Source: Candidatus Bathyarchaeota archaeon (GTDB lineage Archaea > Thermoproteota > Bathyarchaeia > Bathyarchaeales > Bathycorpusculaceae). From it: DNA of 64,000 nucleotides. Of this stretch, positions 16,668-61,319 are shown piece after piece. The first letter of the stretch is position 1, and each line of letters starts with the position of its first letter. Made by a program: the position numbers and the translations under genes. The notes beneath the pieces were generated by a model. It ran no database searches. It worked only from the letters and a program-made list of their open reading frames with translations, and was not told where the DNA came from. The stretch spans positions 96,001 through 160,000 of the forward strand of contig CAWGZR010000009.1 in the NCBI GenBank assembly GCA_963827165.1. The letters are read 5' to 3'.

Positions 16668-16691
16668 TGTGATTGTAGAATTACAGTAACA
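16668..16691 (-). promoter_or_regulatory. TGT-N3-TGT-N6-ACA-N3-ACA element upstream of the PAS-like gene
   Basis: TGTGATTGT-AGAATT-ACAGTAACA (12/12); on minus strand followed after 4 nt by CTTATG. Confidence 0.8.
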
Positions 16692-16890
16692 AGCCAAATC
16701 AATATTCGAGCATCTAATATTCTCACTACCTCTTTCAAAAAACTTAAGATGGGAATTCGTTTGCTAAAGAAGTATTTCTTGGTCAGAGAATAGGTGACTT
16801 TTGAGTTCTTCTATTTTACTCAACGGAAATTCCGAGATAAGAAATAAATAGCCATTTTACTCTTGGTTAACTAAAAGAGGGATTATTGTT

Positions 16891-17040
16891 TTGACTCGTC
16901 CAGTTTGTGCTAAATGTCAGGCTAATGTTTCCGAATTTGGGAGTTACAAATTAAGCGTTGCCGCAGATGGCTCAGCAAAAGATGTCTTAGTTATTTTTTG
17001 CACCAACTGTGGGGCAGTCCAAGGCGTAGTAAATTTCTGA
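16891..17040 (+). CDS. 49-aa zinc-ribbon microprotein (not in ORF track)
   Basis: TTG start after GAGGG; MTRPVCAKCQ...IFCTNCGAVQGVVNF with two CxxC. Confidence 0.75.
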   Translation: MTRPVCAKCQANVSEFGSYKLSVAADGSAKDVLVIFCTNCGAVQGVVNF

Positions 17041-17153
17041 GGAAAATCGCTGCAAATAACTAACCAGTTACTCGGGAGTTTTATCATCAGTCATATTCAA
17101 TCGGCGCATTAATTAGATTACCACTTCTTTTCGAACAGGTTTAAGACCATCGA

Positions 17154-17348
17154 ATGCTGACGAAAACAACTTTAGAGATTCGTAAAACGGTTGGAAAGAC
17201 TGATGTCTTAGGTTTAGAACGCGCAGAAGATCCAGAGCTAACTTAGCGCATAGGTTTTCTTCGGTTCTCAAATTCTAGGAAAATTGATCCCGATGTTGAA
17301 GGCGAAATAAATGAAATCGTTCTGTCAGTATTGAAAAAGCACGCGTAA
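17154..17348 (+). pseudogene. Small ORF interrupted by one in-frame TAG
   Basis: ATG..ELT-TAG(17244-46)-RIGFLRF...KKHA-TAA; AT-rich TTTAAG just upstream. Confidence 0.35.
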
Positions 17349-17495
17349 CAACAATCAATTGAAAATGAAGAGAGCTAATGACTTAAATAAACAAAAAGGA
17401 AAGACCTTAGTCATCGTCAACAAGGCCGCAGCAATTCAAACAAAACGTTCATTTCTATCACCGCGCATCTTGAACGTGAAGTTGGTTTATAGCTC

Positions 17496-18272
17496 ATGAG
17501 TGTTGAAATCAGAATGCTAAGGGAGTTTACTCCCAATCAATTAATACTAATATGCGGATTGCCTGGAACAGCTTACATTGGAAAACTTTCAGTTGATTAC
17601 CTAATTCAGCAACTCAAAGCTGAACAGATTGGGGAGATCTATTCAAAGTATTTTCCACCTTTCGTTGTTATCAGAGAAGACGGACTTGTTGATCTTCTTC
17701 GAAATGAACTTCACTCATTCAAAGATGAATCAGGACGAACAATCGTTTTTCTCTCCGGCAATTCACAAGCCTATTCTCCGGAGGGTCAATATGAGGTAGC
17801 CGACGCGGTTTTGGATTGGGCAATCAAGAACGGTGTTCAGAGAGTATACTCCATTGCAGCCTACATAACCGAAAGACCTTTCGAAGAGCCAAACGTCTAC
17901 TGCACTGCGACAACGTTGGCCTTGCTTGAAGAAGCCAAAGCACAAAGTGCACAATTTCTCAACGATGGAGTCATCGGAGGCGAAAACGGAATAATAACAG
18001 GTCTTGCCAAAAAGAAAAACGTGGAAGCCGCGTGTTTGCTTGCGGAAACCCACGGGTACCAAACTCCCACTGGAGAATACGTAATAGATCCACGGGCAGC
18101 GAAGGCGGCATTGAAAGTCCTGACTTCAATGTTAAATTTGAAAGTAGATATGGAGCCAATGGACAAACAAGTTGCGCAAATGGATGAAACAATCGCTAAA
18201 TTGATTGAAATTGAGCGTCGAATTCGAGAACAAATGGCTGGTTCAGGTAAGAAGCCCGCTTACGTTACTTAA
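17496..18272 (+). CDS. PAC2-family (proteasome assembly chaperone-like) protein
   Basis: ICGLPGTAYIGKLSVDYL, SQAYSPEGQYE, DPRAAKAAL motifs. Confidence 0.88.
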   Translation: MSVEIRMLREFTPNQLILICGLPGTAYIGKLSVDYLIQQLKAEQIGEIYSKYFPPFVVIREDGLVDLLRNELHSFKDESGRTIVFLSGNSQAYSPEGQYEVADAVLDWAIKNGVQRVYSIAAYITERPFEEPNVYCTATTLALLEEAKAQSAQFLNDGVIGGENGIITGLAKKKNVEAACLLAETHGYQTPTGEYVIDPRAAKAALKVLTSMLNLKVDMEPMDKQVAQMDETIAKLIEIERRIREQMAGSGKKPAYVT

Positions 18273-18287
18273 ATTGAGGATGCTCTG

Positions 18288-18968
18288 ATGGAAAAAGAAA
18301 CATGGATAGAACGCCGCGGCGACGCCAAAATTATCGAGCCAATAGCTGTGGTTGGGTCGCCCGGTTTGAGGTCCATAGGCAAACTTGTCATGGACAGTCT
18401 CATTGTCAAAACTAAAGCAATGAAATTTGCAGACCTGTATTCTACGCATATGCCTTCCATTTACGAAACCAAACCTTCCTACGCTGCCGATCCAGCCTTT
18501 CCGGGCTTTGGGGGTGTCATCGTTGAGTCTGGCAAAGCAGACTTTCCTAAAGTCGAGTTTTACACTTGTTCCTCGCCCTCTTTAATCATTACAAAAGGCT
18601 ATCACGCAAATTTTGAAGGCCAATATGAAGTTGCCATAAAAGTCTTAGATTTACTGGCTGAATGCGATGTGAAAAGAATAATAGTCGTCGCAGGTTACGG
18701 TTCAAAGGACAAGAAAGTATGCTGCGCTGCTACTAGCAAAGAATTAGTCGACGAGATGAAAGAAAAATATGGTATTGAGATAGGATACAAGGGACCTTTC
18801 ATGGGTTTCTCAGGGTTGGTATTTGGCTTGTCAAAGCGGAAGGGCATGGAGGCGGTATGCCTTTTTGCCGGCACCGAACCACGTGAAGAAGATCTCGAGT
18901 TTCCAGATAAGGAAGCATCAGAAAGAGCATTGGATAAGATGAATAAGATGCTTGGCTTTAACGAATAG
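18288..18968 (+). CDS. PAC2-family paralogue
   Basis: VVGSPGLRSIGKL, EGQYEVA, GFSGLVFG, PDKEASERAL. Confidence 0.82.
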   Translation: MEKETWIERRGDAKIIEPIAVVGSPGLRSIGKLVMDSLIVKTKAMKFADLYSTHMPSIYETKPSYAADPAFPGFGGVIVESGKADFPKVEFYTCSSPSLIITKGYHANFEGQYEVAIKVLDLLAECDVKRIIVVAGYGSKDKKVCCAATSKELVDEMKEKYGIEIGYKGPFMGFSGLVFGLSKRKGMEAVCLFAGTEPREEDLEFPDKEASERALDKMNKMLGFNE

Positions 18969-19576
18969 CTCTTCACATTACAAACATTATCGTCCGAAGT
19001 CGTTACTGAGCTAATCTTGGCAAGAAAACAAGCCAATAAAACATTTGTTTTCTTCAGACATCGGAGCTTGGCGAGAAATGTCGTGATTGACTTGGGCGAC
19101 GAAATTTTTGATATAAGAAAACTCGAACAGGTCTCTTTTGAAAATAAAGAAAAGCTGCTACGGCTCGCACATAACCTACTTTTGAAATCTAAAACGCAGT
19201 AGTTTCAACTGCCAAAACGGAAAGAAGGCCTTTATGGAATTAATTGAGCAAACCACGGCGTATACCTTAGTATCACTGATAGGTTGTCGTTCTGTTTGTG
19301 AAGGCAAAAGGTTCGCCAGCATGTTTAGATGAGCCGACCATTGAGTTACACAGTATTGAGCCATCTGAACGCGAAGCATCTTCCATTATCGCCGAATAGG
19401 GGGAAAATGCTCTCATAAATAACGATGGGTTAAGCATTTTTCTAGGCAACACTTTAATGATGTTACTGCGATCACAAAGCCACAATAAAATATAGAAAGA
19501 CCCATAAAATCCGACTATTTTCAAACGGAATTCAAAAATATAAGCCATAATAAAGTTCTAACAAGAGACCCATCAA

Positions 19577-20962
19577 ATGCTTGCTAGCCAAAATCTACGG
19601 ACGGAAAATGAAGCTCGAGAACGAGAGTTTTACCTCAAGGAAGATATTAATCAATCAAAATTAGCTATGATCCTGTTTGCAATCCCCCTTGCCGGTTTCA
19701 TTTTTAACGATTACCTATTTTTTGGTATATCCAACATGTTTTATGGACTCATCTTCATTAGGCTTGCACTCTTGTCTGCAACAGGCGTAGAATTGATATA
19801 TATTGGAAGGGTGAAAAGCTACCGCAGCTACGACAAGATAATATTTGTCACGGTGCTGGCAATGATTATGGGTGGGGGAATCATTAATGCCACCCGCCCC
19901 TCAAACATTGCTATAACATGCATCATAACAATCGTGTCAGTGTTTGTTTTGTACTTGGTTGTACCTTTAAAATTTAAGTACCAAGTTTTTCTTGCCACAT
20001 TTACGAGTGTTGGCGAAGCCTTAATTATCGTGTTACTCGCCAGCAATGTCGCCACTTCGGCTATTTTTACTCTACTATTTAGCATGTTTGTTGCAAACGC
20101 AATTGCTGCGTTCAGTGCATGGCGGATGCATTCATATCGAGGAAGGACTTTCCAAGAGTACTTAGAGCATAAAGCACTACAAAATGAATTGGAGCGCCAT
20201 GCAAATCACTTGTCAGAATTGGTTTCAGAGCGAACCAAAGATTTAGTCGACGCTCAATCGCGTCTTATGCAGTCACAGCGCTTATCGGCGATTGGTGAGA
20301 TGGCTGGTATGGTTGGTCATGACCTTCGGAATCCTTTGGCCGCGATTAAGAATGCCGCCTATTTTTTAAGAAAAAAACATGGAACAGTTATCGGTGATAC
20401 CAGCATTGAAATGTTAAATGCAATTGATAGAGCTGTTGAGCATGCCAACGACATCGTTGCTGACTTGCTTGATTTCAGCCGTGAAATACATCTGGATCTT
20501 GAAGAATGTTCACCTAAATCACTAGTAAACTACGTATTACTCGCCATAAATATCCCAAGTAACATCAAGATAACACAAAGCATTCAAAGCGATCTTATGG
20601 TTTGGGTAGATGTATCCAAAATTGAAAGAGTATTTACTAACATAATTAAGAATGCTATTGAAGCTATGCCAAACGGTGGCACAATTGAAATTAGCAGCCG
20701 CCAAAATGAAGGAAATGTTGAATTTATTTTTGCGGATACGGGCAGCGGCATGCCTGAAGATGTAATTGGGAAAATTTTTACGCCTCTCTTTACCACCAAA
20801 GCACAAGGAATGGGTTTCGGACTGGCAATATGTAAACGAATGGTGGAAGCTCATGGAGGCAAAATTGGCGTTGAGAGTTCACTCGGCAAAGGCACAAAAT
20901 TTACAATTTCATTACCTACCGAGCAAACGCATCAGAAGATAGGACAGGAACAACAAAGGTAA
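19577..20962 (+). CDS. Membrane sensor histidine kinase (about 6 TM)
   Basis: Hydrophobic N-half; GHDLRNPL; DTGSG and GMGFGL boxes. Confidence 0.93.
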
Positions 20963-21080
20963 AAATTTCCAAAAGGCAATCGTTTGAGCTTCTAATTAGC
21001 CAATTATCCACTTTTTAAAAGGTAATGTATCAGAGTTAATCAAACGACATTACGCTGACAATATAAGTTATTCAACAAAA

Positions 21081-22340: not shown

Positions 22341-22669
22341 AACATAAACCTGATTCCGATGAATATTAGTCTAATCTTGGAACGCCAATGTTCCACTTTT
22401 GGAACAGACTTACCGAAACCTGATTGGACGAACATTTCTAATTTGCTTCTCACAAGGGTTTGGTTTTGCCAGTGGTGCAAAACTGTATTTCTTATTGCTC
22501 TTCAAAAGTCAAAGATGAATTAAAGAGCAAGATAGCTTTCCGCTTAGATACTTTACAATTGTTTGGACCCAGCGGTCCAAGCGCTTGTTTACGTTGGGTT
22601 TCTAGTGTATCACCATGCAACCGATAGTAATTCTTTTAAGGACACCGGGCTATTCTTGTATGCTATTCG

Positions 22670-28666: not shown

Positions 28667-28853
28667 AAATTTCTTTTGAAGCGTCCTAACAATTTAGCGC
28701 TAACATGAAGCTTACTCAAGCTCGAGATTTGACAGGTAAAAGGTTTGCACGTATGCCCTTTCCCCAATGCGAGAAACTAATGAACAAGTACTGCAAAAAT
28801 GGATTATATACTCAGTTCTTTGTGGGTATTCTCGTATTCCTCAACCATGTGCT

Positions 28854-48583: not shown

Positions 48584-49351
48584 CTATTTCATTTCCAGAA
48601 AAATTCGTTTGAGAATTGTTGCGCCATGCCTCATCTTGAGCTTCTTTTCGCCTATTCTTTCGCGATATCTAATTGGAACTTCGACCGTTCTATAACCTTG
48701 TTTTGTCACTTGGGAGTTAAGTTCAACCTCAATATCGAAGCCTAAGGATCTTATCTTCCAACTCTTAAAAATATCTGCTCTTACAACCCTCAAACCTGTC
48801 AAAGGATCTTCAAGATCTACCCCATTCAATATGTTATGCGCTAAAGCAAGCATTCTATTTCCCAAGTAAAATTGGGTATGCAATGCCTTTTCATCTTTCT
48901 TTCCGCCCAATCTGTTTCCACAAACCATGCCCACATCAGGATTTTGCTCGAGTATCTCAATCATTGAAGGGATATGCTCTGCAGGATATGTGTAGTCAGC
49001 ATCAGTTAAAACGATGTATTTTGCTTCCGTGTCCATTAGGCTTATTCCCTTAGCGATTGCATCTCCCTTGCCAATGCCAGTCTGAAAGGCTATTTGGGCA
49101 CCTGAGTCTTTTGCAATCTCTACAGTTCTATCTCGACTATTTCCATCGACTACAAGAATGCTTGAGTTGCCCATTACCTGTTTAAATTCTTTTAGTGTTA
49201 AGCCGACACCGTTTTCTTCGTTAAGCGCAGCAACTATTAGCTGAGTGGGAGAATAATTCATCAAATTGGCTTGCAATTGCTTTTTCCTTCTTGTAAAATC
49301 CTTATGTTTCTTTGAGAAAAGTCGGTGTGGCCCATTTCTATACCAAAACAC
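48584..49351 (-). CDS. GT2 glycosyltransferase (dolichol-phosphate mannose synthase-like)
   Basis: AALNEE, VVDGNSRDRT, GKGDAI, TDADYTYP, DPLTGLR, FDIEVEL. Confidence 0.9.
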   Translation of the reverse strand: MFWYRNGPHRLFSKKHKDFTRRKKQLQANLMNYSPTQLIVAALNEENGVGLTLKEFKQVMGNSSILVVDGNSRDRTVEIAKDSGAQIAFQTGIGKGDAIAKGISLMDTEAKYIVLTDADYTYPAEHIPSMIEILEQNPDVGMVCGNRLGGKKDEKALHTQFYLGNRMLALAHNILNGVDLEDPLTGLRVVRADIFKSWKIRSLGFDIEVELNSQVTKQGYRTVEVPIRYRERIGEKKLKMRHGATILKRIFLEMK

Positions 49352-49396: not shown

Positions 49397-49420
49397 TGTT
49401 ATTGTAATCGTACAATCACT
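49397..49420 (-). promoter_or_regulatory. TGT-N3-TGT-N6-ACA-N3-ACA element upstream of GT2
   Basis: TGTTATTGT-AATCGT-ACAATCACT (11/12); minus strand followed after 4 nt by CTTATT. Confidence 0.75.
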
Positions 49421-49827: not shown

Positions 49828-50645
49828 CTACTTCATTCGAGTTCTTTGAGGGCTTCTTCTACCCCGGTAGCTCTCATGGACAATTTTCACTATTGCCTTC
49901 ACCATTTTCGTCGGGTCAGGAGCCTGAAAAACATTTCGCCCTATCGAGGCGCCTGCTCCTCCAGCCTGCATGGACTCCCAGACCATCTGCAGAACATCAC
50001 TGTTTGTTTTCATCCTTGGGCCTCCCGCAACTACCACTGGAGCTGGACACCCCTCCACAACTTCCTTAAACGAATCTATGTCTCCAGGGTAGTTTGTTTT
50101 GACTATGTCCGCTCCCAGTTCCGCACCGATCCGCGCCGCAAGTTTTACAGCCTCGACGTCATTCTCGGACTTGACTTTTCGTCCACGAGGGTACATCATT
50201 GCAACGAGGGGCATACCCCATTTCATGCACTCCTGTGAGACAAAACCCAAAGTTTTAAGCATTTCAGACTCATTGTCCGCTCCAACATTAATGTGAACAC
50301 TCACTGCGTCCGCACCCATTATCAATGCTTCCTCAACGGTCGCCACAAGGACTTTATTGTTCGGGTCTGGACTAATACTCAGAACTCCCAGAAAGATGCA
50401 TAATCAATCCCGATGTCTCTGTCATATCTTCGATGACCATAAAGGGGAAGACCTTTGTGACCGAGAACGGCGTTTGCTCCTCCTTCAGCGACTTTATCAA
50501 CCATCTCAGAAAGCTTGACCAAGCCTTTTATGGGACCAACTGAAACCCCATGATCCATGGGCACTATGACCGTTTTCTTAGTCTGTCGGTTAAATATTCT
50601 TTCAAGTCGGATCGACTTTCCAATTAAACTCATTTCAACACCCAT
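49828..50645 (-). pseudogene. Frameshifted class I aldolase (ADH synthase AroA'/DhnA family)
   Basis: [17 protein letters not shown] and [25 protein letters not shown] split by +1 shifts near 50410, 50381 and 49865. Confidence 0.85.
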
Positions 50646-50991
50646 TTTCTATTGTTGTTCAGTTCATAAAAAATTTATGTTTAGGACCGATAACTGTCGG
50701 TGAAAAAATATCCTGTCTTTTTTGGTATGCGCACTGGCAATTTTTGAACATCTTTTTTAGCGGTAAAATGGGGCTAGGATCCACCTCTCAGCACTTAATC
50801 AAGAAAAGATTTTGAACCCAACTGGAAAAACCTGAAGACTAACCTGAGACAATTATTTTATTCTCCATTTTCGAGTTTCAGTCAAAACCCCGCACTTCGA
50901 GTGATCATGGCCAAAAAAACGTTAGATTGTAGGTGTTGATTCACAGTCACACGCCTTAAAGTAAACCTATCGACTTAATGGTGAGTAAGGC

Positions 50992-51177
50992 TTGAAAATG
51001 GGCTTGCTTGATTCACTTTTCGTAGTTGCTGGGATACTTGTTAACTTTTGGCTCTTCAGCTTTGTCTTTCTTAACATAGGTACCATAATATGGGTTCTGC
51101 CTGTCATAGCCATCATCATGGTAGTTGCACGACTGGCTTTCAGGACGCAAAATATAAAATTAGACAAAGAAAGGTAG
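50992..51177 (+). CDS. Small 2-TM membrane protein
   Basis: Two hydrophobic segments and basic tail; downstream of element plus TATA. Confidence 0.65.
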   Translation: MKMGLLDSLFVVAGILVNFWLFSFVFLNIGTIIWVLPVIAIIMVVARLAFRTQNIKLDKER

Positions 51178-51204
51178 GAATAAATGGAGTAAAGGTGGAA
51201 AGAT

Positions 51205-51378
51205 ATGGGTTTTGGAAGTTGGATTGGTGGTGTAGGGCTCTGTATATTAGGAGTTCTGTTAGGATTTTTTGGACTTGCAGTTCTTTTAGGAATTTTTAAA
51301 TTCGTTGCAACGAGCCTTGATCGCCCATTAGGAATAGGTAGTTTAGTGGTATGCTCGTCCACACTCACAGCCGATAAG
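51205..51378 (+). CDS. Small membrane protein (3' end uncertain)
   Basis: Gly-rich hydrophobic helix after GGTGG; the listed ORF runs antisense into the next gene, while a -1 frame stops at 51376-78. Confidence 0.45.
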
Positions 51379-51380
51379 GA

Positions 51381-51581
51381 TTACTTCTTCTTTTGTCTTA
51401 CAGCGACTTTAGCTTTCATTTCAAAGATAGTGTCCTCGCCGGCTTTTCCAATTCCAAAGTTCCATTCTAATACCTCTACGTCCATGTCTTTGAAGTGTGA
51501 AACCAACGATTTCTGGAATTCGCTCCATTTCTCGCTCATCTTCTCTATCTGTTCCTTGACGTCTATATGATGTTCTGACAT
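51381..51581 (-). CDS. Small hypothetical protein
   Basis: 66 aa with GGAGGTG SD. Confidence 0.7.
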   Translation of the reverse strand: MSEHHIDVKEQIEKMSEKWSEFQKSLVSHFKDMDVEVLEWNFGIGKAGEDTIFEMKAKVAVRQKKK

Positions 51582-51623: not shown

Positions 51624-51911
51624 CTAAGCTTTTACTGGACTCAGGTACATATGCAGTTTGTCTTTTGCAACTTTTAAGTGTAATCCAGTGTCTGTCCAGA
51701 TGCCAGTCCCTTTCTCTAAAGCTGTAACGTTTAGATTGTTTCGCACTCCGCCTTTCTTTGCTCCAAGAACTGATTCAGCTACGTTTTTGTCCAATTCGAC
51801 TTCGAGATGAGTTACTTTCCACTCATTGGCGTCTACTTCCAGTTCTTTTATTTTGCCTATTTTTTCATCTAATGCAAACACGTCTTTGTCCATAAATTCT
51901 TTACTTTTCAT
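51624..51911 (-). CDS. PRC-barrel domain protein
   Basis: FMDKDVFALDEKIGKIKELEVDANEWKVTHLEV; GGAGG SD. Confidence 0.75.
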   Translation of the reverse strand: MKSKEFMDKDVFALDEKIGKIKELEVDANEWKVTHLEVELDKNVAESVLGAKKGGVRNNLNVTALEKGTGIWTDTGLHLKVAKDKLHMYLSPVKA

Positions 51912-52332
51912 AAATTGTCTGACCTCCTTTTACGCTCAAGACTTGAGCTACCTTATAAAGAGTCATTGGCTGGGTTAAACTCGTGTGACTGTGAATCAAC
52001 ACCTACAGCCCTCCACAAATATTTAAACCCTAAATTGCCATAAAGCGCTGCTTCAATTCGTCTCTGAAAGTTTCCTGTAAATGCTTCGCACATAACGGCA
52101 CTGTCAAAAGCTTGCTACGAACATCATGCCTTATTTAACTGCCCACTAACTCTGAGCCTTAATTTAACTCATGAATTTTGTCTATAGTATTCGATAATGA
52201 AGTTAAAGAAAACGTCAGGTCAGTCTCGGTACTTTCGTTTTTCCTGGAGGCTTTTTGGTTCTTGGAGCTTTGACATCGCTAAACTCGTTTCTTAACTTGT
52301 TGAGCGTGGGTGTCGGGTACGTAGTGATAGGT

Positions 52333-52356
52333 TGTAGGTGGGATACTACATAGACA
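52333..52356 (+). promoter_or_regulatory. TGT-N3-TGT-N6-ACA-N3-ACA element
   Basis: TGTAGGTGG-GATACT-ACATAGACA (11/12), then TCAA-CTTAATA. Confidence 0.75.
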
Positions 52357-52419
52357 TCAACTTAATAGCGATTTACGCTCTATTCTATTCATAGTTCTGA
52401 TGGAGGTTTTTAGGTTCAG

Positions 52420-52734
52420 ATGAGTCTTACTGAGTTTGAGAAATCAAAGAAGCAAAGGCCGAAGGAGATGATTTGCGCTGAGACCTCGTTGGGATCCAAG
52501 ACTTCTAACGCAGAGCGAAGTCTGAAGGAACGTTTGCCACTCATTAAATGCGAGTGCGGAACCGAGATCTTGTTGCTGCCCGATTTGGTGGCTATGGACC
52601 GCGCTATCGATGCACATGTGGCTGAACACAGGAAAAAAGGGAATAACCCTTCTAGGGCAGCCACTTCTAGTCGTATCAGTCAGCTTTTAGCTCAATTAAT
52701 TTTAAGGAAGGCAAGTGAAGACACGCTTCATTAA
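52420..52734 (+). CDS. Hypothetical protein with CxC...HxxxH putative metal site
   Basis: IKCECG..DAHVAEH; GGAGG SD. Confidence 0.65.
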   Translation: MSLTEFEKSKKQRPKEMICAETSLGSKTSNAERSLKERLPLIKCECGTEILLLPDLVAMDRAIDAHVAEHRKKGNNPSRAATSSRISQLLAQLILRKASEDTLH

Positions 52735-53853: not shown

Positions 53854-54834
53854 TTATCGAATTCGTAGATCCTTTTTTCTTTCAATCAAGTCTGTGATTT
53901 CGTCAAATTCGCTGGTGTAGTCTTTATGTTCCTTAACTAATCTTTTTAGTCTGTTTTGGTTAAAGTAGCCTTCGTAGAATCCGAAGAACATAATCGCAAA
54001 GAATCCATACATTAGATAGTTGCCAAAAGCGGCCATGCCTTGCGTGACAACTAGGAGTATAATCGGAAAAAGCACACCGAGAGAACCAATATACGCAGAC
54101 ATTGCTCCAATTAGAGCGCCCATAACATCAATCTTATTATCATTTATACTCTTGGCCAGACCTGCTTTTCTTTCCCAGAGCGTTGACGTGTCGCTGAAAT
54201 CAACTGCACTAAACAAGCTATCAAAAGCTCCGATCGAAATATGGTTTGTTCGATTTTTGAAGGCGCTGTTCATTTTTTGGTGATAGAACTCGCGATGTTC
54301 TTGGTATTCACGCTTTATGATGGTAGCATCTATGTACGGTGTCCTTCTAACCATGCGAATAGCGTACTTTACGTTTTCAACAAACTTTTTGCCGACGAGT
54401 TCTTGTTCAGCTTTTTTTGCCGCGCGTGCCTCATTAAGTATATCTTGTTTTTCTTCATCCTTCAGAGTTTGTTTTTCTTTAGCTGTCATCATTTTGTGCG
54501 AAAATCGATGGTCATTAATACATTTGTAAATTATAGTTGAAAAGGGGTGAGGTACATAGAATTCTGAGACTTTTTCTGCACAATAGGGGCATATGTATCC
54601 AGAATCGTGCCAATCTGGGTCTTCAGTTATCTTCTTTCCATTATTTTTTTCCCATTGTTTTATCCAATGTCTTGTCTGACCCCAGCCACCGCTTAAACTG
54701 AGATAAAGAACTTTTGATTCTTTTATCGCTTGAATGATATCTTCTTCTGTTCGCGCTTGAATCTTTTCAACTTTTGTTTTGGTTTGCTCTTGCTGCGTTT
54801 TCTCTTCTATTGTGGGCTTTTCTATTTCATACAT
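53854..54834 (-). CDS. Hypothetical protein with Zn-finger-like motif and two C-terminal TMs
   Basis: CPYC..C...H; hydrophobic hairpin near C-terminus. Confidence 0.65.
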   Translation of the reverse strand: MYEIEKPTIEEKTQQEQTKTKVEKIQARTEEDIIQAIKESKVLYLSLSGGWGQTRHWIKQWEKNNGKKITEDPDWHDSGYICPYCAEKVSEFYVPHPFSTIIYKCINDHRFSHKMMTAKEKQTLKDEEKQDILNEARAAKKAEQELVGKKFVENVKYAIRMVRRTPYIDATIIKREYQEHREFYHQKMNSAFKNRTNHISIGAFDSLFSAVDFSDTSTLWERKAGLAKSINDNKIDVMGALIGAMSAYIGSLGVLFPIILLVVTQGMAAFGNYLMYGFFAIMFFGFYEGYFNQNRLKRLVKEHKDYTSEFDEITDLIERKKDLRIR

Positions 54835-55124
54835 TTTTGTCCCTTTGTGTTAAAGAAATCCGTTTGGGGTCGGCTCTTTGTTTTTTAGAAACTCAAGGTT
54901 TTTTTTGAGCTTAAAGGTAGTTGCTCGATCACACACACTGCATGCTACCGCTTCTTTAACTAAAAAATCTTCATTTCCATATTTATGCGTGTGTGGATGG
55001 GACGCCCCAGCAACATTAAAGCCAGTTTGGGCAAAATTTTTTTAATAATTCAATTTCTGAAAGATAATACTAATGGAACATGATAATTAAGAGATAATAG
55101 AGATTTTTTAACATCCTACCGCTC

Positions 55125-55148
55125 TGTCGGTGTGAGACAACAGTTACA
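55125..55148 (+). promoter_or_regulatory. TGT-N3-TGT-N6-ACA-N3-ACA element
   Basis: TGTCGGTGT-GAGACA-ACAGTTACA (12/12), then CAGA-CTTAATA. Confidence 0.8.
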
Positions 55149-55197
55149 CAGACTTAATAGAGATTTGCGCCCATATGTAACTTAGAAGACATAATTT

Positions 55198-55620
55198 ATG
55201 AACAATCTTATCATTGGAAATATCAGTTTAATGAGCCTTATCGTAACTATAATTGGCTTGATTATTCTTTGGGTAGTAGTCTCAATACCCGTATGGCTAG
55301 CCGGCAAGGCATTAACTGGCGGAAAAGCCACCTTTGGGGAAGCCATGCTTGCCACACTGTTTGGCCCAATAGTTTATGCTATCACGTTGTTCGTAGTGGG
55401 CTACTTCCTGGGAACGCTAATTGGCTCAACCGCGTATGTAATCGCATTAATTTTAGCGCTTTTAGCGTGGATATGGGTCTACAAAGCAAGCTTCAGAATA
55501 GGCTGGCTAAGCGCAATCGCAATAGCAATACTGGCATGGATAATCTTCGTCGTAATAAGCATAATATTTGGAGCCCTCTTCGGCATAGTGGTTCCGGGAA
55601 CGTTCTTCCCCCACATTTAA
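55198..55620 (+). CDS. 4-TM membrane protein
   Basis: Four hydrophobic segments. Confidence 0.75.
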   Translation: MNNLIIGNISLMSLIVTIIGLIILWVVVSIPVWLAGKALTGGKATFGEAMLATLFGPIVYAITLFVVGYFLGTLIGSTAYVIALILALLAWIWVYKASFRIGWLSAIAIAILAWIIFVVISIIFGALFGIVVPGTFFPHI

Positions 55621-55706
55621 AATGAACGTGAATTTTTTTCACGCAAAATTGTTTAAAACAAATCATTTGCGAAACTATACAAATATCCAAAGAGGTGAAC
55701 TAAAAA

Positions 55707-56027
55707 ATGAAGAATAATTTTGCTTACTGGGGATACATCCTTGCGTTAATAGGTGGAATACTCATAATCGTTTTTGGCTTACTTGGTCTTATAGGATCTT
55801 CTTTTGGCAGCACTTTCTCACCGGCTGGTTACTACTTGACGGGAGTAATGTACAGCATAGTGGCAATAGTAATTGGTGCGATCTGTGTAATTGGGTCAAA
55901 GTCCATTGGAATCTTGCCTTGGGCAATAGTGCTATTAGTACTTGGAATCGTTTCAGGCGGAATCGGAGGAGTCTTAGTTGTTCTCGGAGCCCTTCTGGGA
56001 TTACTTTCAATATTCGCTAAGTCGTAG
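55707..56027 (+). CDS. Small Gly-rich membrane protein
   Basis: Hydrophobic throughout; GAGGTG SD. Confidence 0.75.
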   Translation: MKNNFAYWGYILALIGGILIIVFGLLGLIGSSFGSTFSPAGYYLTGVMYSIVAIVIGAICVIGSKSIGILPWAIVLLVLGIVSGGIGGVLVVLGALLGLLSIFAKS

Positions 56028-56139
56028 CCCAAATAGGTGAAACCAAAAAACTTCAAAAAATCTTTTTTCATGTAACTTTTTTGGTGATTTTCTGCAACAA
56101 TTGCTTTTCTTTTAGATTCGCGTCATTTATTGAGCTTTT

Positions 56140-56163
56140 TGTCGGTGTGGGGTTACAGCTACG
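56140..56163 (+). promoter_or_regulatory. TGT-N3-TGT-N6-ACA-N3-ACA element
   Basis: TGTCGGTGT-GGGGTT-ACAGCTACG (11/12), then CAAG-TTTAAAA. Confidence 0.78.
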
Positions 56164-56216
56164 CAAGTTTAAAAGCTGTATATACGCTTATAATTACAAT
56201 TGTGGAGATGTAGATC

Positions 56217-56543
56217 TTGGGCGCGGTAGATCAAGTATTTCATTTTATTACTTCTGGAAGCATAGGCGGATTATCACCTATTGTATTAATGATAATAATA
56301 TTCGTCGTGGGATTAATTGTAGGCTACTTAGTTCACTTATTCTTAAAGATCGCCATTATAGCTGCAATTATAATATTCATAGTTGCGTACTTCGGCTTCT
56401 TCGGCTTAAGCCTTGGTGCATTGAAAAGTTATGCAACCCAATACGGCTCAATTGTATATCAGTATGGAGCACTCATCATAGGCATCCTACCTTTGAGCAT
56501 TGGATTTATAGTAGGTGTAATCATCGGCTTCGTATTGGGATAA
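56217..56543 (+). CDS. Small membrane protein (FUN14-like architecture)
   Basis: FVVGLIVGY..LKIA..AYFG; C-terminal GFIVGVIIGF. Confidence 0.65.
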   Translation: MGAVDQVFHFITSGSIGGLSPIVLMIIIFVVGLIVGYLVHLFLKIAIIAAIIIFIVAYFGFFGLSLGALKSYATQYGSIVYQYGALIIGILPLSIGFIVGVIIGFVLG

Positions 56544-56615
56544 ACTAAACATTCCTCTACGGGGTTTGAAGGAGTCTCTCTAAAGAGATTTTGAAAAGAG
56601 GGAAGTAACTTCTCT

Positions 56616-56639
56616 TGTCTATGTCGCTTCCCAGTCACA
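56616..56639 (+). promoter_or_regulatory. TGT-N3-TGT-N6-ACA-N3-ACA element
   Basis: TGTCTATGT-CGCTTC-CCAGTCACA (11/12), then CAGT-TATTTAT. Confidence 0.72.
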
Positions 56640-56682
56640 CAGTTATTTATCGAACCAAACGATATTATTACAAGTAAAGTGG

Positions 56683-57135
56683 TTGATTAATATGGCAACT
56701 CCAGATGATATAAAGAACATACTTGGCTCCAACGAAAAAGTTGAATTATACATTGAGGAAAAAATCTATCATCCTCGAATTAACATAGAATCTGTGATCA
56801 TAACGAATGAACGGATAATTTTTCGGCATCCCCACGCGCTTGGTTTAAAGAAAGACTACACTGATTACAGCTATAGGGATGTAACGAATGTGACGTTAAA
56901 AAAAGGAATAAAACGTTCAACCATCAGGCTCACGGTTAAGCATGGGTTAGAAAATCAGGGAAAGCAGCAAGAAGGCGAGGATCTGGATTTGGATAACCTA
57001 CCAAACGATCTTGCAGAAAAGGGATATGGCATTATCAGAGAAAATATTGGCAAATTCCAATCACCATTTTCTACTGGATATGCGACTACTCCAAACGAAA
57101 CCCCAAATAGTCAACAGCAACCTAGCAACCGCTAG
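56683..57135 (+). CDS. Bacterial-type PH (bPH) domain protein
   Basis: LGSNEKV..VIITNERIIF..DYSYRDVTNV. Confidence 0.75.
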   Translation: MINMATPDDIKNILGSNEKVELYIEEKIYHPRINIESVIITNERIIFRHPHALGLKKDYTDYSYRDVTNVTLKKGIKRSTIRLTVKHGLENQGKQQEGEDLDLDNLPNDLAEKGYGIIRENIGKFQSPFSTGYATTPNETPNSQQQPSNR

Positions 57136-57322
57136 AAATCCTTTTTGCCGTCAATACTTTTTTTTTAACGCAGGTTTTTATTTAATAAAAATAAAGCTAA
57201 TTAGCGATCTGACTGAAGGCGTCATATTCGAATCTTGCCAGGATCCTTTTTTTAATCCCTTCCTTAACTTCAAGGAACTAAAAAGATAAATATGTCAGGA
57301 TACAAAAATATTAACAGATAGA

Positions 57323-58108
57323 ATGACGAACGATGAAAACACTGACCTGCTGCTTGGTTTGGGTTTGACTCTTAACCAGGCAAAGGTTTACTTGGCCGTA
57401 ATTAAACTCGAAAAAACAACAGTTGGACAAGTCGCGAGTTTTTCGAAAGTGCGTAGGGAAGATGTCTATAGGATTTTACCATCACTTGAAAAAATGGGTT
57501 TGGTTGAAAGATTACTGGGCAAACCGACTGAGATTAGAGCTACTCGCATTTCAGATGCCTTAAGCCTCTTGGTTGCCGAAGAAAAAGGCAAATTTGACGA
57601 GCGGCTTGTGGGAATGAGAGGTATAGTCCAAAAACTATCCCTTAAAGACTGGAAGCAAGAACTTCCTAAAGAAGAAAGCATTTACATACTAATTGCAGAA
57701 AAGAAATCAATTCTTGCTAAAACCGCGGATCTTATATGTAATTCCAAAAAAGAAGTCGCCTTAATTGCAGATAAAGGCAGAATTATGCCGGTTTTATTTC
57801 AATTTTCCGATGAATATACGCTCGCAATAAAGAACGGTACTGTGATTCGGTTGCTTTTTGAAGGCGAAAAACCGGATGCCATACTCAAAGAAAAAGTTAC
57901 AAAACTCATCGGTGCCACCTCGGTTCAGGTAAAGTTTCACGCTGAGCCTTTGAATCATTTTCTAATGTCGGACGATAAAGAAGCATTAATCACTACCTCC
58001 AAAGAAAGCGGATTAGGGGAAAGCCCCTCTTTATGGACGAACAATAGCAACCTCATAGGTGTGTTAAGGACAAGTTTTGAATCGGATTGGAAAAAAGCTG
58101 AATGCTAA
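57323..58108 (+). CDS. TrmB-family regulator
   Basis: LGLTLNQAKVYLA..VYRILPSLEKMGLVE..GKP; DDKEALI..FESDWKKA. Confidence 0.9.
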   Translation: MTNDENTDLLLGLGLTLNQAKVYLAVIKLEKTTVGQVASFSKVRREDVYRILPSLEKMGLVERLLGKPTEIRATRISDALSLLVAEEKGKFDERLVGMRGIVQKLSLKDWKQELPKEESIYILIAEKKSILAKTADLICNSKKEVALIADKGRIMPVLFQFSDEYTLAIKNGTVIRLLFEGEKPDAILKEKVTKLIGATSVQVKFHAEPLNHFLMSDDKEALITTSKESGLGESPSLWTNNSNLIGVLRTSFESDWKKAEC

Positions 58109-58433
58109 ACCGAGAAACTGAGGTTTATACAGAGCGATGCCACTTTACAGTCTGCACAGCGAGACAATTCGTAATATTTCACAAACAAAGGCGTCGTTTT
58201 GCATCTTGACCGGTAATCCCCCGAAGAAACATGGGAAAATGTAAAATAAGCCGTTTTGGTTAGCACGCAATGTTAAAGCGACAGCAGAATGAACAATGGA
58301 TTGTAGCAGCAGCCTTGGCCGAAACCGCATAACCGTTTCTTTGCAATATTTTAGCCAAGTTGACAATACATCAACAGCAACCGATAGCAATGGTGCAATA
58401 ACTCTTTCTAGCCTTTTTCCTTAGTTTTCAACT

Positions 58434-58733
58434 TCAAACAAAGAGATGAGGGGTTACCTGAGCGGTTCTGTAATAGATTTCTTCACCTATCGCTTCCTTA
58501 ATTACTTTTTTCTCTATTTTCTTCTCTTCCGCTAATTTATCTAGAGCCTTCCTTAGTTGAATCGCAAGCTCATAACTAATCGGCTCTTTTGTGACCAAGT
58601 ATCCCAGGCCTTCCATTATACTTACAAGATTAAAAGCGCGATTCATGTTTTCTTTTTTGTTCAGAAAGGACATTATTCTGTCTTCAACTGGATGTACTTT
58701 TCCAGAATCCCATTCTTCAGTATCAATTGGCAT
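58434..58733 (-). CDS. Small wHTH-like hypothetical protein
   Basis: IMSFL..AFNL..I..LDKLAEEKKIEKK..IYY. Confidence 0.6.
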   Translation of the reverse strand: MPIDTEEWDSGKVHPVEDRIMSFLNKKENMNRAFNLVSIMEGLGYLVTKEPISYELAIQLRKALDKLAEEKKIEKKVIKEAIGEEIYYRTAQVTPHLFV

Positions 58734-59006
58734 TTTAGTCCCAATGTGTTAAAGGTTTTGTAAGAATTAAAGCTAGTACTTTCAAATTACCTCTTCAATT
58801 AAATATAACACAGCTTCTGTTTTGGGTATAATCTTTTCTTTATCGTAGCCAATGATAAAAACGCGTGAAATCGTAATCAATACCATGGCTGAAGTTAGAA
58901 GTGTCGCTTCAGAAACTGGAGTTGAACTTACATAATATTCAAGATGTGTATGTTTTCTGGCTGTTCCGATAAAGAAGAATATGTTAAGCTATCCCGTAGC
59001 ACCAAG

Positions 59007-59417
59007 CTACACTTTCAAAAAGATAACTTCGTTCAACAATCTGAAATGCTCGTCTCCCGTAACGACTTTTGCATTGAAATTTTTTGCCGTGCACAAAATA
59101 ATTGAATCGGCCAAACCCCAGCATTTCGCTTTTTCTTTTAAATCTACATTTAGTTTACCTGCGTCAGCTGCAATTTCAAAATCCAAGTCAACGATCATGC
59201 TTGTGGCGCGTATAAATTCTAGACGTTTTAACCTACCATCAGGGGTTTCATTTCCCAGTTCGATTTCCTTTTGCAGTTTTCTGCTGATTTCCGAAATCAC
59301 AATTGTCGGAGTGGCTGATTGTCCATCTTCTATATACTCTCTTGCGATTACCCCTAATTCTGAAGCTTTGAAGTATTCTATCCAAGCATAGGCGTCGATA
59401 ATGTATTTACAGCTCAT
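59007..59417 (-). CDS. vapC: VapC PIN-domain toxin
   Basis: IIDAYAWIEYF..VISEI..GLADSII..VVTGDEHF. Confidence 0.92.
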   Translation of the reverse strand: MSCKYIIDAYAWIEYFKASELGVIAREYIEDGQSATPTIVISEISRKLQKEIELGNETPDGRLKRLEFIRATSMIVDLDFEIAADAGKLNVDLKEKAKCWGLADSIILCTAKNFNAKVVTGDEHFRLLNEVIFLKV

Positions 59418-59607
59418 GGAATTCTGCCTCGTCCTGTTTCGAGAAAGAATTCAATTTACGGTTTGAGCCAAACATAGAGCAAGGAATTTTTTTTCTTTCG
59501 ACAATTAGTGTTCTTATTACTTCGTCGTGGCTTTTCATTTTCATCTCTTTCTTAACTCTATTGAGCATCTGAAGAGTCTTTTCGTTTACCTGAACTGTTG
59601 TCGGCAC
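59407..59607 (-). CDS. vapB: VapB antitoxin (RHH-like)
   Basis: TTVQVNEKTLQML..KSHDEVIRTL; overlaps vapC. Confidence 0.85.
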   Translation of the reverse strand: MPTTVQVNEKTLQMLNRVKKEMKMKSHDEVIRTLIVERKKIPCSMFGSNRKLNSFSKQDEAEFHEL

Positions 59608-59625
59608 TTTTCAACACGACTGTAA

Positions 59626-59643
59626 CTATAACTATAGTTATAG
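59626..59643. promoter_or_regulatory. Perfect 18-bp palindrome, likely vapBC autoregulatory operator
   Basis: CTATAACTATAGTTATAG between TATA and vapB start. Confidence 0.7.
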
Positions 59644-59754
59644 CCTATTAATATTTTCATAGAAGATTTTGAATCGTCCATAATTCCCATCAACCGCAGA
59701 TGCACCTGCTAATAAATTCCAAAAATTAATATTCTCCCGCATGCCCAGATGAAA

Positions 59755-59800
59755 ATCCTTTCCCGCAGAGGTTCGCAGGTTCGAATTAACCCCTGCAACA
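59755..59800 (+). repeat. Degenerate copy of tRNA-Leu 3' exon (attR-like)
   Basis: ATCCTTTCCCgCAGaGGTTCGCAGGTTCGAAT matches 46971-47002 at 30/32, then diverges. Confidence 0.85.
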
Positions 59801-59865
59801 AAAATAATCTAAATTTTTTATAGGAAAATTTTAGTAAGCCAATCCCTTAAAAGGTAATCGTTCCC

Positions 59866-60117
59866 TTGGTGGCTAAATTGGCTAAGACAGTCATGACTGA
59901 GCAGGAGAAGAGAGATCTTAAGATCATCGCTATAGAACTCTTAGAAATCCGCAAGCTTGTTGATGAACTTGCCGAAAGCTTGGTAAACTTAAGCGACAAA
60001 GAGTTGCTAAAGTTATGTAATGCAAACCAAGATAACGAGATTAAGGAAAAACAAGTAGACAAGTACAAAGAAAAACTGGAAAAACAACTGGACATCGCCG
60101 AAAAAGAATTTCGATAA
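59866..60117 (+). CDS. Small protein resembling an orphan RelB-type antitoxin
   Basis: ELAESLVNLSDKELLK motif; no toxin ORF follows. Confidence 0.45.
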   Translation: MVAKLAKTVMTEQEKRDLKIIAIELLEIRKLVDELAESLVNLSDKELLKLCNANQDNEIKEKQVDKYKEKLEKQLDIAEKEFR

Positions 60118-60203
60118 TAAGCACCCGAACGAGCATCTTTTCATCTGGAGGCTTGCAGCTCACGGGCGGCCAAAGAGCTTTTAGCAATTCAACTAAATGT
60201 TTC

Positions 60204-61259
60204 CTAAAACTTAATGAGTGGTTTTATGACGCCATCCAGCTTTTTATCCATTATTTCAAATGCTTTGTCGGCCTCATCAAACGTGAATGTATGAGTGGTC
60301 ATACGCGTTGGATCAATTTTCCGATTCTCTAATAGCAGCAGTAATCTTTGCAGCCTTAAGCGTCCTCCTGGGCACAATGAGGTTTTTATGGTTTTTTGAG
60401 ACATCCCAACACCCCAATCCAACCTAGGAATACAAACGCACTCGCCAACGCCATGATATCCTACATTTGATATTGTTCCGCCAGGCTTTGTGACCTTAAT
60501 GGAGTTCTCAAATGTGATATCTGCTCCAAGCGCTTCAATCGAGCCATCTACACCCAAACCCGCAGTTAAATCCATTATTCTGGCCACCGCGTTTTCTTTA
60601 GCTGGGTCAACAATCAAATCTGCACCGTAAAACTTCGCAAGCTCTTGTCGCTTAGGCACTGAATCGACTCCCACTATCACGCCTGCACCCCTGAATTTGG
60701 CTCCAGCAACTGCCATGAGACCCACGGGTCCCAGAGCAAACACCACCGCTGAACCCCCTATAGGAATGTTAGCCTCTTCAGCACCTGCAAATCCAGTTGA
60801 CATCATGTCAGCCACATAAACGGCGGCTTCATCAGGCACATCATCAGGGATCTTTGCCATGTTAGCGTCCGCCTCATTAACATGAAAATACTCTGCAAAC
60901 ACGCCGTCCTTGGTGTTAGAAAACTTCCATCCGCCCAATGGTTGACCAGATTGAGATGGGTGGCCTCCTTGAGAAGCGATATCTCCCCAGTCAGGCGTTA
61001 TAGCGCCGACAGCAACTCGGTCACCGGGCTTAAAGATTTTCACTTGGCTGCCAACTTTGTTGACTACACCCGTGGCTTCATGTCCAAGAGTCAGGTTCGC
61101 ACGTTGACCAATCGCGCCCCGCACAGTATGCGAGTCTGAGGTACAAACTAAGGCGACTTTTGTCTTTACAATTGCGTCGTTTGGTCCGACCTCAGGAAGA
61201 GGTTTTTCCATGAACCCGACGCTGCCTATTTCCTTCATTACAAAAGCTTTCATAGACAT
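60204..61259 (-). CDS. adh: Zn-dependent NAD(P) secondary alcohol dehydrogenase
   Basis: CTSDSH, GHEATG, DMMSTG, LGPVGL, CPGGRLR, GVIKPLI as in isopropanol dehydrogenases. Confidence 0.92.
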   Translation of the reverse strand: MSMKAFVMKEIGSVGFMEKPLPEVGPNDAIVKTKVALVCTSDSHTVRGAIGQRANLTLGHEATGVVNKVGSQVKIFKPGDRVAVGAITPDWGDIASQGGHPSQSGQPLGGWKFSNTKDGVFAEYFHVNEADANMAKIPDDVPDEAAVYVADMMSTGFAGAEEANIPIGGSAVVFALGPVGLMAVAGAKFRGAGVIVGVDSVPKRQELAKFYGADLIVDPAKENAVARIMDLTAGLGVDGSIEALGADITFENSIKVTKPGGTISNVGYHGVGECVCIPRLDWGVGMSQKTIKTSLCPGGRLRLQRLLLLLENRKIDPTRMTTHTFTFDEADKAFEIMDKKLDGVIKPLIKF

Positions 61260-61295
61260 CTTAGTGCTCTCTAGCTTTCAGATTATTTCAATATT

Positions 61296-61319
61296 TGTGA
61301 CTGCCATTTCACAGTTACA
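61296..61319 (-). promoter_or_regulatory. TGT-N3-TGT-N6-ACA-N3-ACA element upstream of adh
   Basis: TGTGACTGC-CATTTC-ACAGTTACA (11/12), 37 bp from start codon. Confidence 0.75.

Follow-up and report, generated by a model that had tools for sequence, protein, structure and literature searches.

We analysed a 64-kb stretch of the genome of a Candidatus Bathyarchaeota archaeon (G000, contig C9, positions 96001-160000; hereafter the window), in which a 24-bp palindromic element, TGT-N3-TGT-N6-ACA-N3-ACA, recurs upstream of genes for small membrane proteins, a PRC-barrel-like protein, a bPH_3 protein and an alcohol dehydrogenase. The G000 assembly comprises 3.13 Mb in 14 contigs and has a G+C content of 44%. 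Our results showed that this is a real, conserved cis-regulatory element with its own regulon and that, in kind, it is an archaeal transcription factor site next to the core promoter. Bathyarchaeia, which abound in soils, peat, and sediments, have barely been cultivated; to our knowledge, nothing is known about their gene regulation. A first-pass annotation of the window, made from the letters alone, had called the element unrecognised, and our search of the literature on Bathyarchaeota promoters and transcription factors and on the 9-mers of the motif likewise found no description of it.

Five perfect matches to the pattern were found in the window (12803, 16668, 50928, 51984, and 55125), and none occurred in 100 dinucleotide shuffles of the window (mean 0.00, maximum 0). 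When one mismatch was allowed, the number rose to 10 by the addition of 49397, 52333, 56140, 56616, and 61296, compared with a mean of 0.14 and a maximum of 2 in the shuffles. These five additional matches are exactly the 11/12 sites of the first-pass annotation, and the sequences of its two 10/12 sites, 19461 and 54992, are also as it gave them. Its statement that all sites are intergenic holds for the sites it listed, but it had overlooked the perfect match at 12803, which lies inside the open reading frame (ORF) 12560-14065. This match is not followed by a TATA box and its score is low; it is probably a non-functional chance occurrence. In the whole genome there were 11 perfect and 35 one-mismatch matches, and the numbers expected from base composition are about 0.3 and 10, respectively.

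The sites can be oriented, a feature that the annotation did not report; those at 16668, 51984, 54992, and 61296 point to the minus strand. The oriented consensus is TGTnGyTGy-N6-ACArTCACA, followed after about 4 nt by a TTTAA-type TATA box. In the genome-wide printout, one half was near ACAGTCACA, with (c)TTAA or TTTAA 3-5 nt later, and the other half was looser (TGTnGyTGy). In a profile of 51 sites, positions 1-3, 7-8, 17-18, and 21-24 were almost invariant, positions 5, 16, 19, and 20 were partially conserved, and the 6-nt spacer was T-rich. Position 21 was C in 48 of the 51 sites and its mirror position 4 was degenerate. The TTTAAww box occupied positions 29-35, and the flanks carried less than 0.2 bit. 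We scanned the genome with a position weight matrix (PWM) of the 24-bp core and found 92 strand-hits of at least 16 bits, compared with 1-4 in three genomes simulated with a third-order Markov (Markov-3) model. A model of the core plus the TATA box gave 54 sites (63 strand-hits) of at least 18 bits in 3.13 Mb, compared with 0-3 strand-hits in the Markov-3 simulated genomes; enrichment across the genome at a fixed TATA distance had been named in the annotation as a check on the element, and it was found. Nine of the 54 sites lie in the window, which represents 2% of the genome, and eight of these fall within 12 kb (49.4-61.3 kb).

To avoid circularity, the coupling to the TATA box was estimated from 51 genome-wide sites that had been selected and oriented by the 24-bp core alone. 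The first TATA-like pentamer began 4-6 nt past the CACA end in 29 of them, where about 1.2 would be expected at random (a TATA-like pentamer occurs at about 0.8% per offset at random positions), and seven further sites had such a pentamer at 4-6 nt on the opposite side. The same 4-6 nt geometry was found in five related genomes (G003, G008, G020, G060, and G061). This bears out the earlier claim that a TATA-like box follows the element after about 4 nt. At most core+TATA sites the ORF, in our own ORF picks, starts about 35-75 nt downstream; for the nine best sites we measured 36-72 nt from the proximal end of the element, in agreement with the 37-73 bp reported before. The proximal CACA extends into the place where the transcription factor B recognition element (BRE) would lie, as the annotation had also proposed. 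The TATA centre is usually 26-27 nt from the start point in archaea (PMC5512572). With this spacing the leaders should be short or absent, and the element would span roughly -57 to -34 of the inferred start point, with the invariant CACA in the distal part of the BRE. At several high-scoring sites a good TATA box is present, but no ORF of at least 45 aa follows within 200 nt (C9 240889, C9 20643, C7 3692, C2 35516, and C3 216935 in G000); these may drive very small proteins or non-coding RNAs.

Target genes and conservation in relatives

The genes behind the element look like a protective, stress-type regulon. The stress and membrane character that the first-pass annotation had read from the window becomes clearer when the whole genome is considered, where the targets assigned by Pfam include a Cpn60_TCP1 thermosome subunit, a methionine sulfoxide reductase (PMSR/MsrA), two KGG-repeat "stress-induced" proteins, two PRC-barrel proteins, a bPH_3 protein, a hemerythrin, and a multicopper oxidase. 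BrkB/YihY, an MFS transporter, SnoaL-like and cupin proteins, an F420/NADP oxidoreductase, an S-adenosylmethionine methyltransferase, a lactonase-type propeller, two DUF5752 proteins (each beside pyruvate kinase), two stand-alone AsnC-type ligand-binding domains, and two HTH_45 winged-helix proteins were also found, and in relatives an M48 peptidase and a paralogue of TFS are added. Many targets are proteins of 50-150 aa without a family. A DEAD-box helicase (L016) was rejected as a target, since the orientation given by the core+TATA model makes it a divergent neighbour.

The element gives a first regulon map for Bathyarchaeia, with about 50 targets, and it names a candidate set of stress-protection genes that includes many proteins without known function. 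Its value lies in this size, in the stress-type content, and in the rigid arrangement of operator, 4 nt, and TATA box, which suits the study of how an archaeal regulator contacts TBP and TFB.

Several details of the target set deserve mention. The DUF5752 genes belong to two paralogous modules (C3:68766-70210 and C6:3-1456 in G000) in which pyruvate kinase is divergent from DUF5752 and the motif lies in the common intergenic region, facing DUF5752. The TFS/TFIIS-type zinc-ribbon paralogue (L130:238-612 in G003, 125 aa) stands behind a 22-bit site, and a stress-controlled variant of the RNA polymerase cleavage factor would be of interest. Fusions of fasciclin with a C2H2 zinc finger recur as targets in three genomes (L097:373-1110 on C4 of G000, L179 in G020, and L142 in G060). 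This pairing is unusual for an archaeon, and the G000 copy is the second gene behind a small membrane protein.

We investigated the conservation of the element at the level of the order with the strict pattern TGTNNNTGNNNNNNNACANNCACA in 41 relatives of G000, with the reversed pattern as control. G000 itself had 24 strand-hits, and 8-28 were found in 20 of the 24 same-genus genomes; the other four, G006, G011, G018, and G024 (96, 58, 88, and 93% complete, respectively), had 0-3. In 16 genomes from other families of the order there were 0-4 hits, with 0-1 for the reversed-pattern control. In a sample of the family (121 genomes, 70 genera), at least six hits were found in 14 genomes of nine genera (g1, g26, g30, g34, g36, g37, g39, g45, and g63), eight of which are not the genus of G000, and most genera had none. 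All 14 motif-rich genomes of this sample are at least 2.0 Mb in size, and one of them, G116, had 47 hits.

The first-pass annotation had also named conservation upstream of orthologues as a check. A divergent thermosome paralogue had the site upstream in all four named loci of metagenome-assembled genomes (MAGs; 66-80% protein identity), and the site likewise precedes orthologues of two HTH_45 genes (10/10 and 7/8 loci; see below). The thermosome paralogue is absent in the four motif-poor same-genus genomes, where the best match is 32-36% identical. The automatic pick for its start codon (offset 7) is wrong, lying within the TATA box; the gene really begins further down. When the downstream ORFs of sites in G003, G008, and G020 (same genus) and in G060 and G061 (two other genera) were clustered, the target families common between genomes were DUF5752, KGG, a 150-aa family, fasciclin(-C2H2), the 95-aa PRC-barrel protein, small membrane proteins, a 100-aa family without known function, and HTH_45.

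Two further observations concern the thermosome promoters. A second conserved stretch, cTAAGCAAGTATGCGCAGACTT, occurs 20-45 nt downstream of the TATA box in 5/5 genomes (L026, G000 C12 about 28700-28800; L083-L086), and it could be an element of the 5'-untranslated region or a second operator, e.g., for heat shock. In one MAG (L085 position 497, thermosome 66% identical), the proximal half reads ACAACAACT in place of ACAGTCACA. As this is a more distant relative, the motif drifts with phylogeny, and such drift could help to find a co-varying regulator.

A candidate dedicated regulator

We consider it somewhat better than even (roughly 55%) that the element is the binding site of one dedicated dimeric regulator that abuts the BRE and most likely acts as an activator. 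Such a sequence-specific regulator would bind as a dimer or a dimer of dimers to two imperfectly symmetric 9-bp half-sites, the distal TGTnGyTGy and the proximal ACArTCACA. It would sit next to TBP and TFB with its own half-site filling the BRE position and would help to recruit one of them, as TFB-RF1, EarA, and Ptr2 do, so that about 50 promoters could be switched together as a stress-protection set. That spacing and orientation stay so rigid across numerous promoters and genera points to a protein that contacts the basal factors co-operatively, and the TATA-side half, being under the stronger constraint, suggests an extra contact there. Both features favour activation, to which we give about twice the odds of repression.

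Parallels are known from other archaea. In Pyrococcus and Thermococcus, the TFB-RF1 (PF1088) binding motif (TRBM) is described as palindromic and as lying at a constant distance in front of a genuine TATA box (PMC5937170), and TFB-RF1, EarA, Ptr2, and the ara-box factor are described as recruiting TFB or TBP (PMC5937170, PMC5512572). TRBM resembles the Bathyarchaeial element in its fixed position relative to TATA, in a BRE that departs from the housekeeping consensus, and in its family-wide conservation with target operons; those of TRBM include the operon of TFB-RF1 itself (PMC5937170). However, TRBM is TCTGAANTTCAGA (13 nt; TCTG-N5-CAGA), and the 24-nt TGTnGyTGy-N6-ACArTCACA does not match it; TRBM lies upstream of the BRE, whereas the Bathyarchaeial element extends into it, and TFB-RF1 controls two operons, whereas about 50 promoters are marked here. 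The EarA sites, the upstream activating sequence of Ptr2, and the Sulfolobus ara-box share the position just upstream of the core promoter and the proposed aid to TFB or TBP at a sub-optimal promoter (PMC5512572). They differ in their motifs and protein families and serve one or a few operons each, and for the Bathyarchaeial element activation is only deduced. The fixed, close TATA distance and the single orientation of activator sites of the TFB-RF1/EarA/Ptr2 type were both found for it.

The best candidate for the reader, which we put forward tentatively from sequence comparison, is an Sso10a-like HTH_45 protein that has the site in its own promoter and would be autoregulated. Two such proteins matched Pfam HTH_45, namely P0001 (112 aa, E = 2.6e-21) and P0002 (E = 6.6e-12), and P0001 is homologous to Sso10a (PDB 1r7j, E = 2.5e-8; a further Sso10a structure is 4hw0). 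The two HTH_45 genes of G000 lie at C2:42263-42598 and C4:92718-92951. The site was found upstream of the P0001-type gene in 10/10 same-genus orthologue loci and upstream of the P0002-type gene in 7/8. HTH_45 genes with an upstream site are also present in G060 and G061, and in four of five further motif-bearing genera (G087, G116, G063, and G069) the best HTH_45 homologue has one. Adjacent sites were found at 0/20 loci of distant HTH_45 paralogues, and a search of five large genomes without the motif gave three loci of HTH_45 homologues, again with no site beside them. A P0001 orthologue (E ≤ 1e-12) was present in 9/14 motif-rich versus 0/107 motif-poor genomes of the family sample.

Sso10a is described as a dimer in which an antiparallel coiled coil separates two winged-helix domains, one at each end (PMC4941522). 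Two such distant heads would suit a long bipartite site, and this geometry would fit two half-sites 15-21 bp apart. However, the Bathyarchaeial P0001 protein differs by an N-terminal extension of 30-40 residues. The Sso10a proteins are also presented as architectural chromatin proteins that bend, bridge, and stiffen DNA and not as sequence-specific regulators (PMC4941522), which weighs against the HTH_45 lead. If an Sso10a-like protein is nevertheless the reader, the view of this family would change.

Several results weigh against a dedicated activator, or against HTH_45 as its identity. P0001/P0002-type HTH_45 genes were not found in the motif-rich genomes G016, G020, and G022, and the HTH_45 candidate was likewise not found in G058. 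In G016, G020, G022, G058, and G021, an upstream site was present at 0/30 HTH_45 loci examined (of 92 matches), so universal autoregulation of HTH_45 genes is rejected; at two further HTH_45 loci of G016 the sites point in the direction opposite to the gene. A P0002 orthologue is present in G011, without its site and without the motif elsewhere. No single regulator candidate fits all motif-bearing genomes, and the co-occurrence of HTH_45 and motif is equally expected if the HTH_45 gene is merely a target. In the BRE region, the 38 motif promoters, compared with 29 tRNA promoters, are without G and C/A-rich (CACA) with a similar A content, which is no measure of strength; the tRNA promoters of the genome have the housekeeping BRE gRAAA, and the motif promoters hold another sequence there. 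Archaeal repressors are classically placed on sites that extend into the BRE. The PWMs derive from the sites of G000 itself, so the within-genome counts are partly circular and the independent evidence is that from other genomes. The ORF picks are home-made, and some of the small targets may be wrong. The only RNA evidence consists of three short peat contigs that give neither start, strand, nor level and are maybe DNA carry-over.

The HTH_45 family is very large, with 31, 27, and 21 matches in G016, G020, and G058, respectively, and none in the motif-free G006 and G018.

Other genes were considered as the source of the regulator. The first-pass annotation had listed the TrmB gene at 57323 among its candidates, and its phylogenetic profile does not support it as a master regulator, a role that we reject for it: strict orthologues (at least 74% identity) of TrmB 57323-58108 were found in only 4 of 24 same-genus genomes (G002, G003, G013, and G019), always with the site cluster, and in motif-rich G017, with 10 motif hits, nothing matches it at E ≤ 1e-10. 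This TrmB is probably a member of a local gene island, and it may be co-transcribed with the bPH_3 gene, after which it lies at a distance of 188 nt. The TrmB family is also large, with up to 15 matches per genome in G000 and its relatives. A regulator encoded divergently from its site was rejected as well: among 20 divergent neighbours of sites compared with Pfam, no DNA-binding family was found, and the matches comprised one stand-alone receiver domain (L123) and unrelated enzymes.

In bacteria, general stress regulons are known in which a promoter signature is read by an alternative sigma factor, namely sigma-B in Bacillus and EcfG/PhyR in Alphaproteobacteria. The likeness lies in one promoter signature in front of tens of genes for small protective proteins, with an overlap in KGG, PRC-barrel, bPH, small membrane proteins, and methionine sulfoxide reductase. 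The difference is that TBP and TFB are the machinery here and the signature is a palindrome beside TATA, and no orthology of the control systems is implied. A bolder proposal, which we regard as unlikely, is that the family has a true general stress response in which an HTH_45 dimer would be an autoregulated, sequence-specific master activator beside TBP and TFB, occupying the BRE at about 50 promoters. Its role would be analogous to that of sigma-B or EcfG over a partly overlapping set of proteins, namely KGG, PRC-barrel, bPH, MsrA, and a thermosome paralogue dedicated to this response.

Another system with some resemblance is the Thermococcales glycolytic motif (TGM), which is read by TrmBL1/Tgr and whose position relative to BRE and TATA decides the outcome. 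It is a palindrome with ATCAC/GTGAT-like half-sites, and TrmB paralogues are numerous in G000, with one in the site cluster of the window. However, the half-sites of the Bathyarchaeial element are in opposite (everted) order and much further apart, and the window TrmB has the narrow distribution described above.

Alternative explanations

The strongest competitor, a possible though clearly less favoured one, keeps the same protein site and makes the protein a repressor. It would block TFB over the distal BRE until stress releases it, and the proximal half would double as the BRE or overlap it, hence the fixed spacing. The conserved CACA ends about 4 nt from TATA, inside the 6-7 nt where TFB reads DNA, and regulators bound within the promoter are reported to repress by steric hindrance (PMC5937170, PMC5512572). 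The comparison with tRNA promoters given above is as compatible with repression as with activation. Known archaeal heat-shock regulators are repressors, too. However, occlusion tolerates varied placement, whereas the spacing of 4-6 nt and the strict orientation are kept over about 50 promoters and several genera, and the proximal half is the more constrained one, as positions 21 and 4 illustrate.

The binding mode could also be different from one dimer on two 9-bp half-sites. The letters allow two TGT-N12-ACA boxes staggered by 6 bp, TGT(1-3)/ACA(16-18) and TGy(7-9)/ACA(22-24), on which two dimers could bind in the manner of PpsR/CrtJ, and the window holds a PAS-containing TrmB and kinases. 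The first-pass annotation had pointed to this spacing, but the match is purely formal, as the same letters can simply be read in both ways. The PpsR/CrtJ family is bacterial, and no homologue was noticed here, although no search aimed at one was made. The conserved G5, T20, and C21 stand outside the triplets and are not part of its operator; moreover, the two halves differ. No isolated single boxes were identified, though the pattern is too loose for this to be a test. We therefore think it improbable that two staggered dimers are involved.

For the earlier suggestion of a dedicated activator or an alternative TFB-like factor, the first part remains the best explanation and the second falls on the TFB gene counts. 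An alternative TFB paralogue would read the element or its proximal half as an extended BRE, which would be a basal-factor switch as in haloarchaea. The proximal half, which is the better conserved one, does lie at the BRE position, and G000 has 10 TFIIB-repeat matches, i.e., five TFB genes. There is a precedent in a Halobacterium heat-shock promoter described as controlled via BRE/TATA and a TFB variant (PMC2396416). However, six motif-rich genomes (G005, G007, G008, G015, G017, and G019) have four TFIIB-repeat matches each, i.e., only two TFB genes, and four matches were also found in 9/16 motif-free genomes outside the genus. Conversely, the motif-free G011 and G024 have six matches, i.e., three TFB genes. 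The near-symmetric two-fold 24-mer reaches 28 nt upstream of TATA, beyond what the helix-turn-helix of TFB covers. None of the five TFB genes of G000 lies in the window: the "TFB-repeat protein" annotated at 5276 matches no Pfam family at E ≤ 0.001, and 0/10 of the TFIIB-repeat matches of the genome fall there. An alternative TFB as the reader is very unlikely on these grounds, and we reject it.

We give almost no probability to the view that the element is no protein site at all and instead the end of a repeat or mobile element, or an RNA or DNA hairpin such as the terminator of the upstream gene. It is almost self-complementary, and the same 24-mer (26 nt with two adjoining bases) occurs in inverted orientation at 50928 and 51984, 1 kb apart. 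Yet the flanks are uninformative (<0.2 bit), and the N positions vary among sites. In 126 sites from six genomes, no covariation was seen between the variable mirror positions 6 and 19 (Fisher p = 0.83), and only 36 sites had complementary bases at positions 4 and 21. An Rfam scan of the window gave 0 hits. The element is coupled to TATA and to the start codon that follows rather than to the ends of upstream genes, and it is conserved upstream of orthologues across genera.

Sites and neighbouring genes in the window

The sites and targets of the putative dedicated regulator in the window are summarized in Table 1.

Table 1. Matches to the element and their targets in the 64-kb window. Bit scores of sites are from the core+TATA model; the Pfam cut-off is E ≤ 0.001.
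Feature	Coordinates	Strand	Description
Loose-pattern match	12803..12826		Perfect; inside PAS-histidine-kinase ORF 12560-14065, no TATA behind; 10.8 bits (+)
Target ORF	16216..16629	-	137 aa, no Pfam family; start 38 nt from the 16668 element
Site	16668..16691	-	Strong, 34.5 bits; minus strand TGTTACTGTAATTCTACAATCACA, then attaCTTATG; faces 16216-16629
Site	19461..19484	+	Weak, 10/12, 16.6 bits; 92 nt upstream of histidine kinase 19577-20962
Site	49397..49420	ambiguous	22.2 bits on +, no downstream ORF of at least 30 aa; 17.6 bits on -
Site	50928..50951	+	Strong, 29.9 bits; then cgcCTTAAAG
Likely transcription unit behind the 50928 site	50992..51570	+	Membrane-protein gene and ORF 51205-51570
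Target	51624..51911	-	95-aa PRC-barrel-like protein; Pfam E 0.0025, short of the cut-off
Site	51984..52007	-	Strong, 27.9 bits; minus strand, then cgagTTTAAC
Site	52333..52356	+	Weak, 11/12 but 11.9 bits; tcaaCTTAATA at the right spacing
Site	54992..55015	-	Weak, 10/12, 19.7 bits; 157 nt upstream of ORF 53854-54834 (326 aa, no family)
Site	55125..55148	+	25.5 bits; then cagaCTTAATA; target 55198-55620
Site	56140..56163	+	26.7 bits; then caagTTTAAAA; target 56217-56543
Site	56616..56639	+	18.4 bits; target bPH_3 protein 56683-57135
Site	61296..61319	-	30.6 bits minus, 23.3 bits plus; 36 nt upstream of Zn-dependent alcohol dehydrogenase 60204-61259

The region 49.4-61.3 kb is a local cluster of small stress-type genes. 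At its left end, the site at 49397, taken in its minus orientation, is followed by attgCTTATTA, and the GT2 gene 48584-49351 begins 45 nt downstream. The sites at 50928 and 51984 head two convergent transcription units about 1 kb apart; they are exact reverse complements of each other over 24 bases, and the identity ends 2 nt beyond. The first gene behind 50928 (50992-51177) encodes a small membrane protein with two transmembrane (TM) segments and a weak DUF5670 match, and a paralogue stands behind the site at C4 253742; the following ORF encodes a 121-aa protein without a family. The weak site at 52333 lies 63 nt upstream of ORF 52420-52734 (104 aa, Cys-rich).

Several of these targets have counterparts in relatives. 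Proteins homologous to the PRC-barrel-like protein are targets behind sites in G003 and G020, as are homologues of the 108-aa membrane protein encoded at 56217-56543. The 140-aa multi-TM membrane protein encoded at 55198-55620 has a homologous target in G003, where the pair of site and bPH gene is also present.

Parts of the stretch occur in 19 public runs, which are mostly soil or peat metagenomes and include one RNA library. In this peat metatranscriptome, three short, near-identical contigs correspond to 51208-51358 and 51405-51555 (both in ORF 51205-51570) and to 56946-57148 (the bPH gene), which is compatible with expression of these two genes; the lack of contigs over the rest of the window is uninformative.

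Other genes lie among or beside the sites of the cluster. A DeoC/LacD-type aldolase is split over the minus-strand ORFs 49828-50346 and 50379-50645 (Pfam positions 80-229 and 1-57, respectively), which could be due to a frameshift, a pseudogene, or an assembly error. The PIN-domain protein 59007-59417 (minus strand) and the small ORF 59407-59607 upstream of it look, from their sequence and arrangement, like a VapBC-type toxin-antitoxin pair. A Peptidase_A4 gene is located at 61379-62398.

At the other end of the window, positions 1-21000 form a dense signalling block. It includes a hybrid kinase with receiver and PAS domains (9770-12532), the PAS kinase (12560-14065) and a further kinase (19577-20962), an HTH_45/PadR-like gene (4070-4432), a PadR gene (4510-4908), an AsnC-type winged helix-turn-helix gene (6365-6865), a TrmB-PAS gene (7026-9362), and two tandem PAC2 genes (17496-18968). 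The TrmB-PAS and PadR-like genes that the annotation had named are indeed present in the window.

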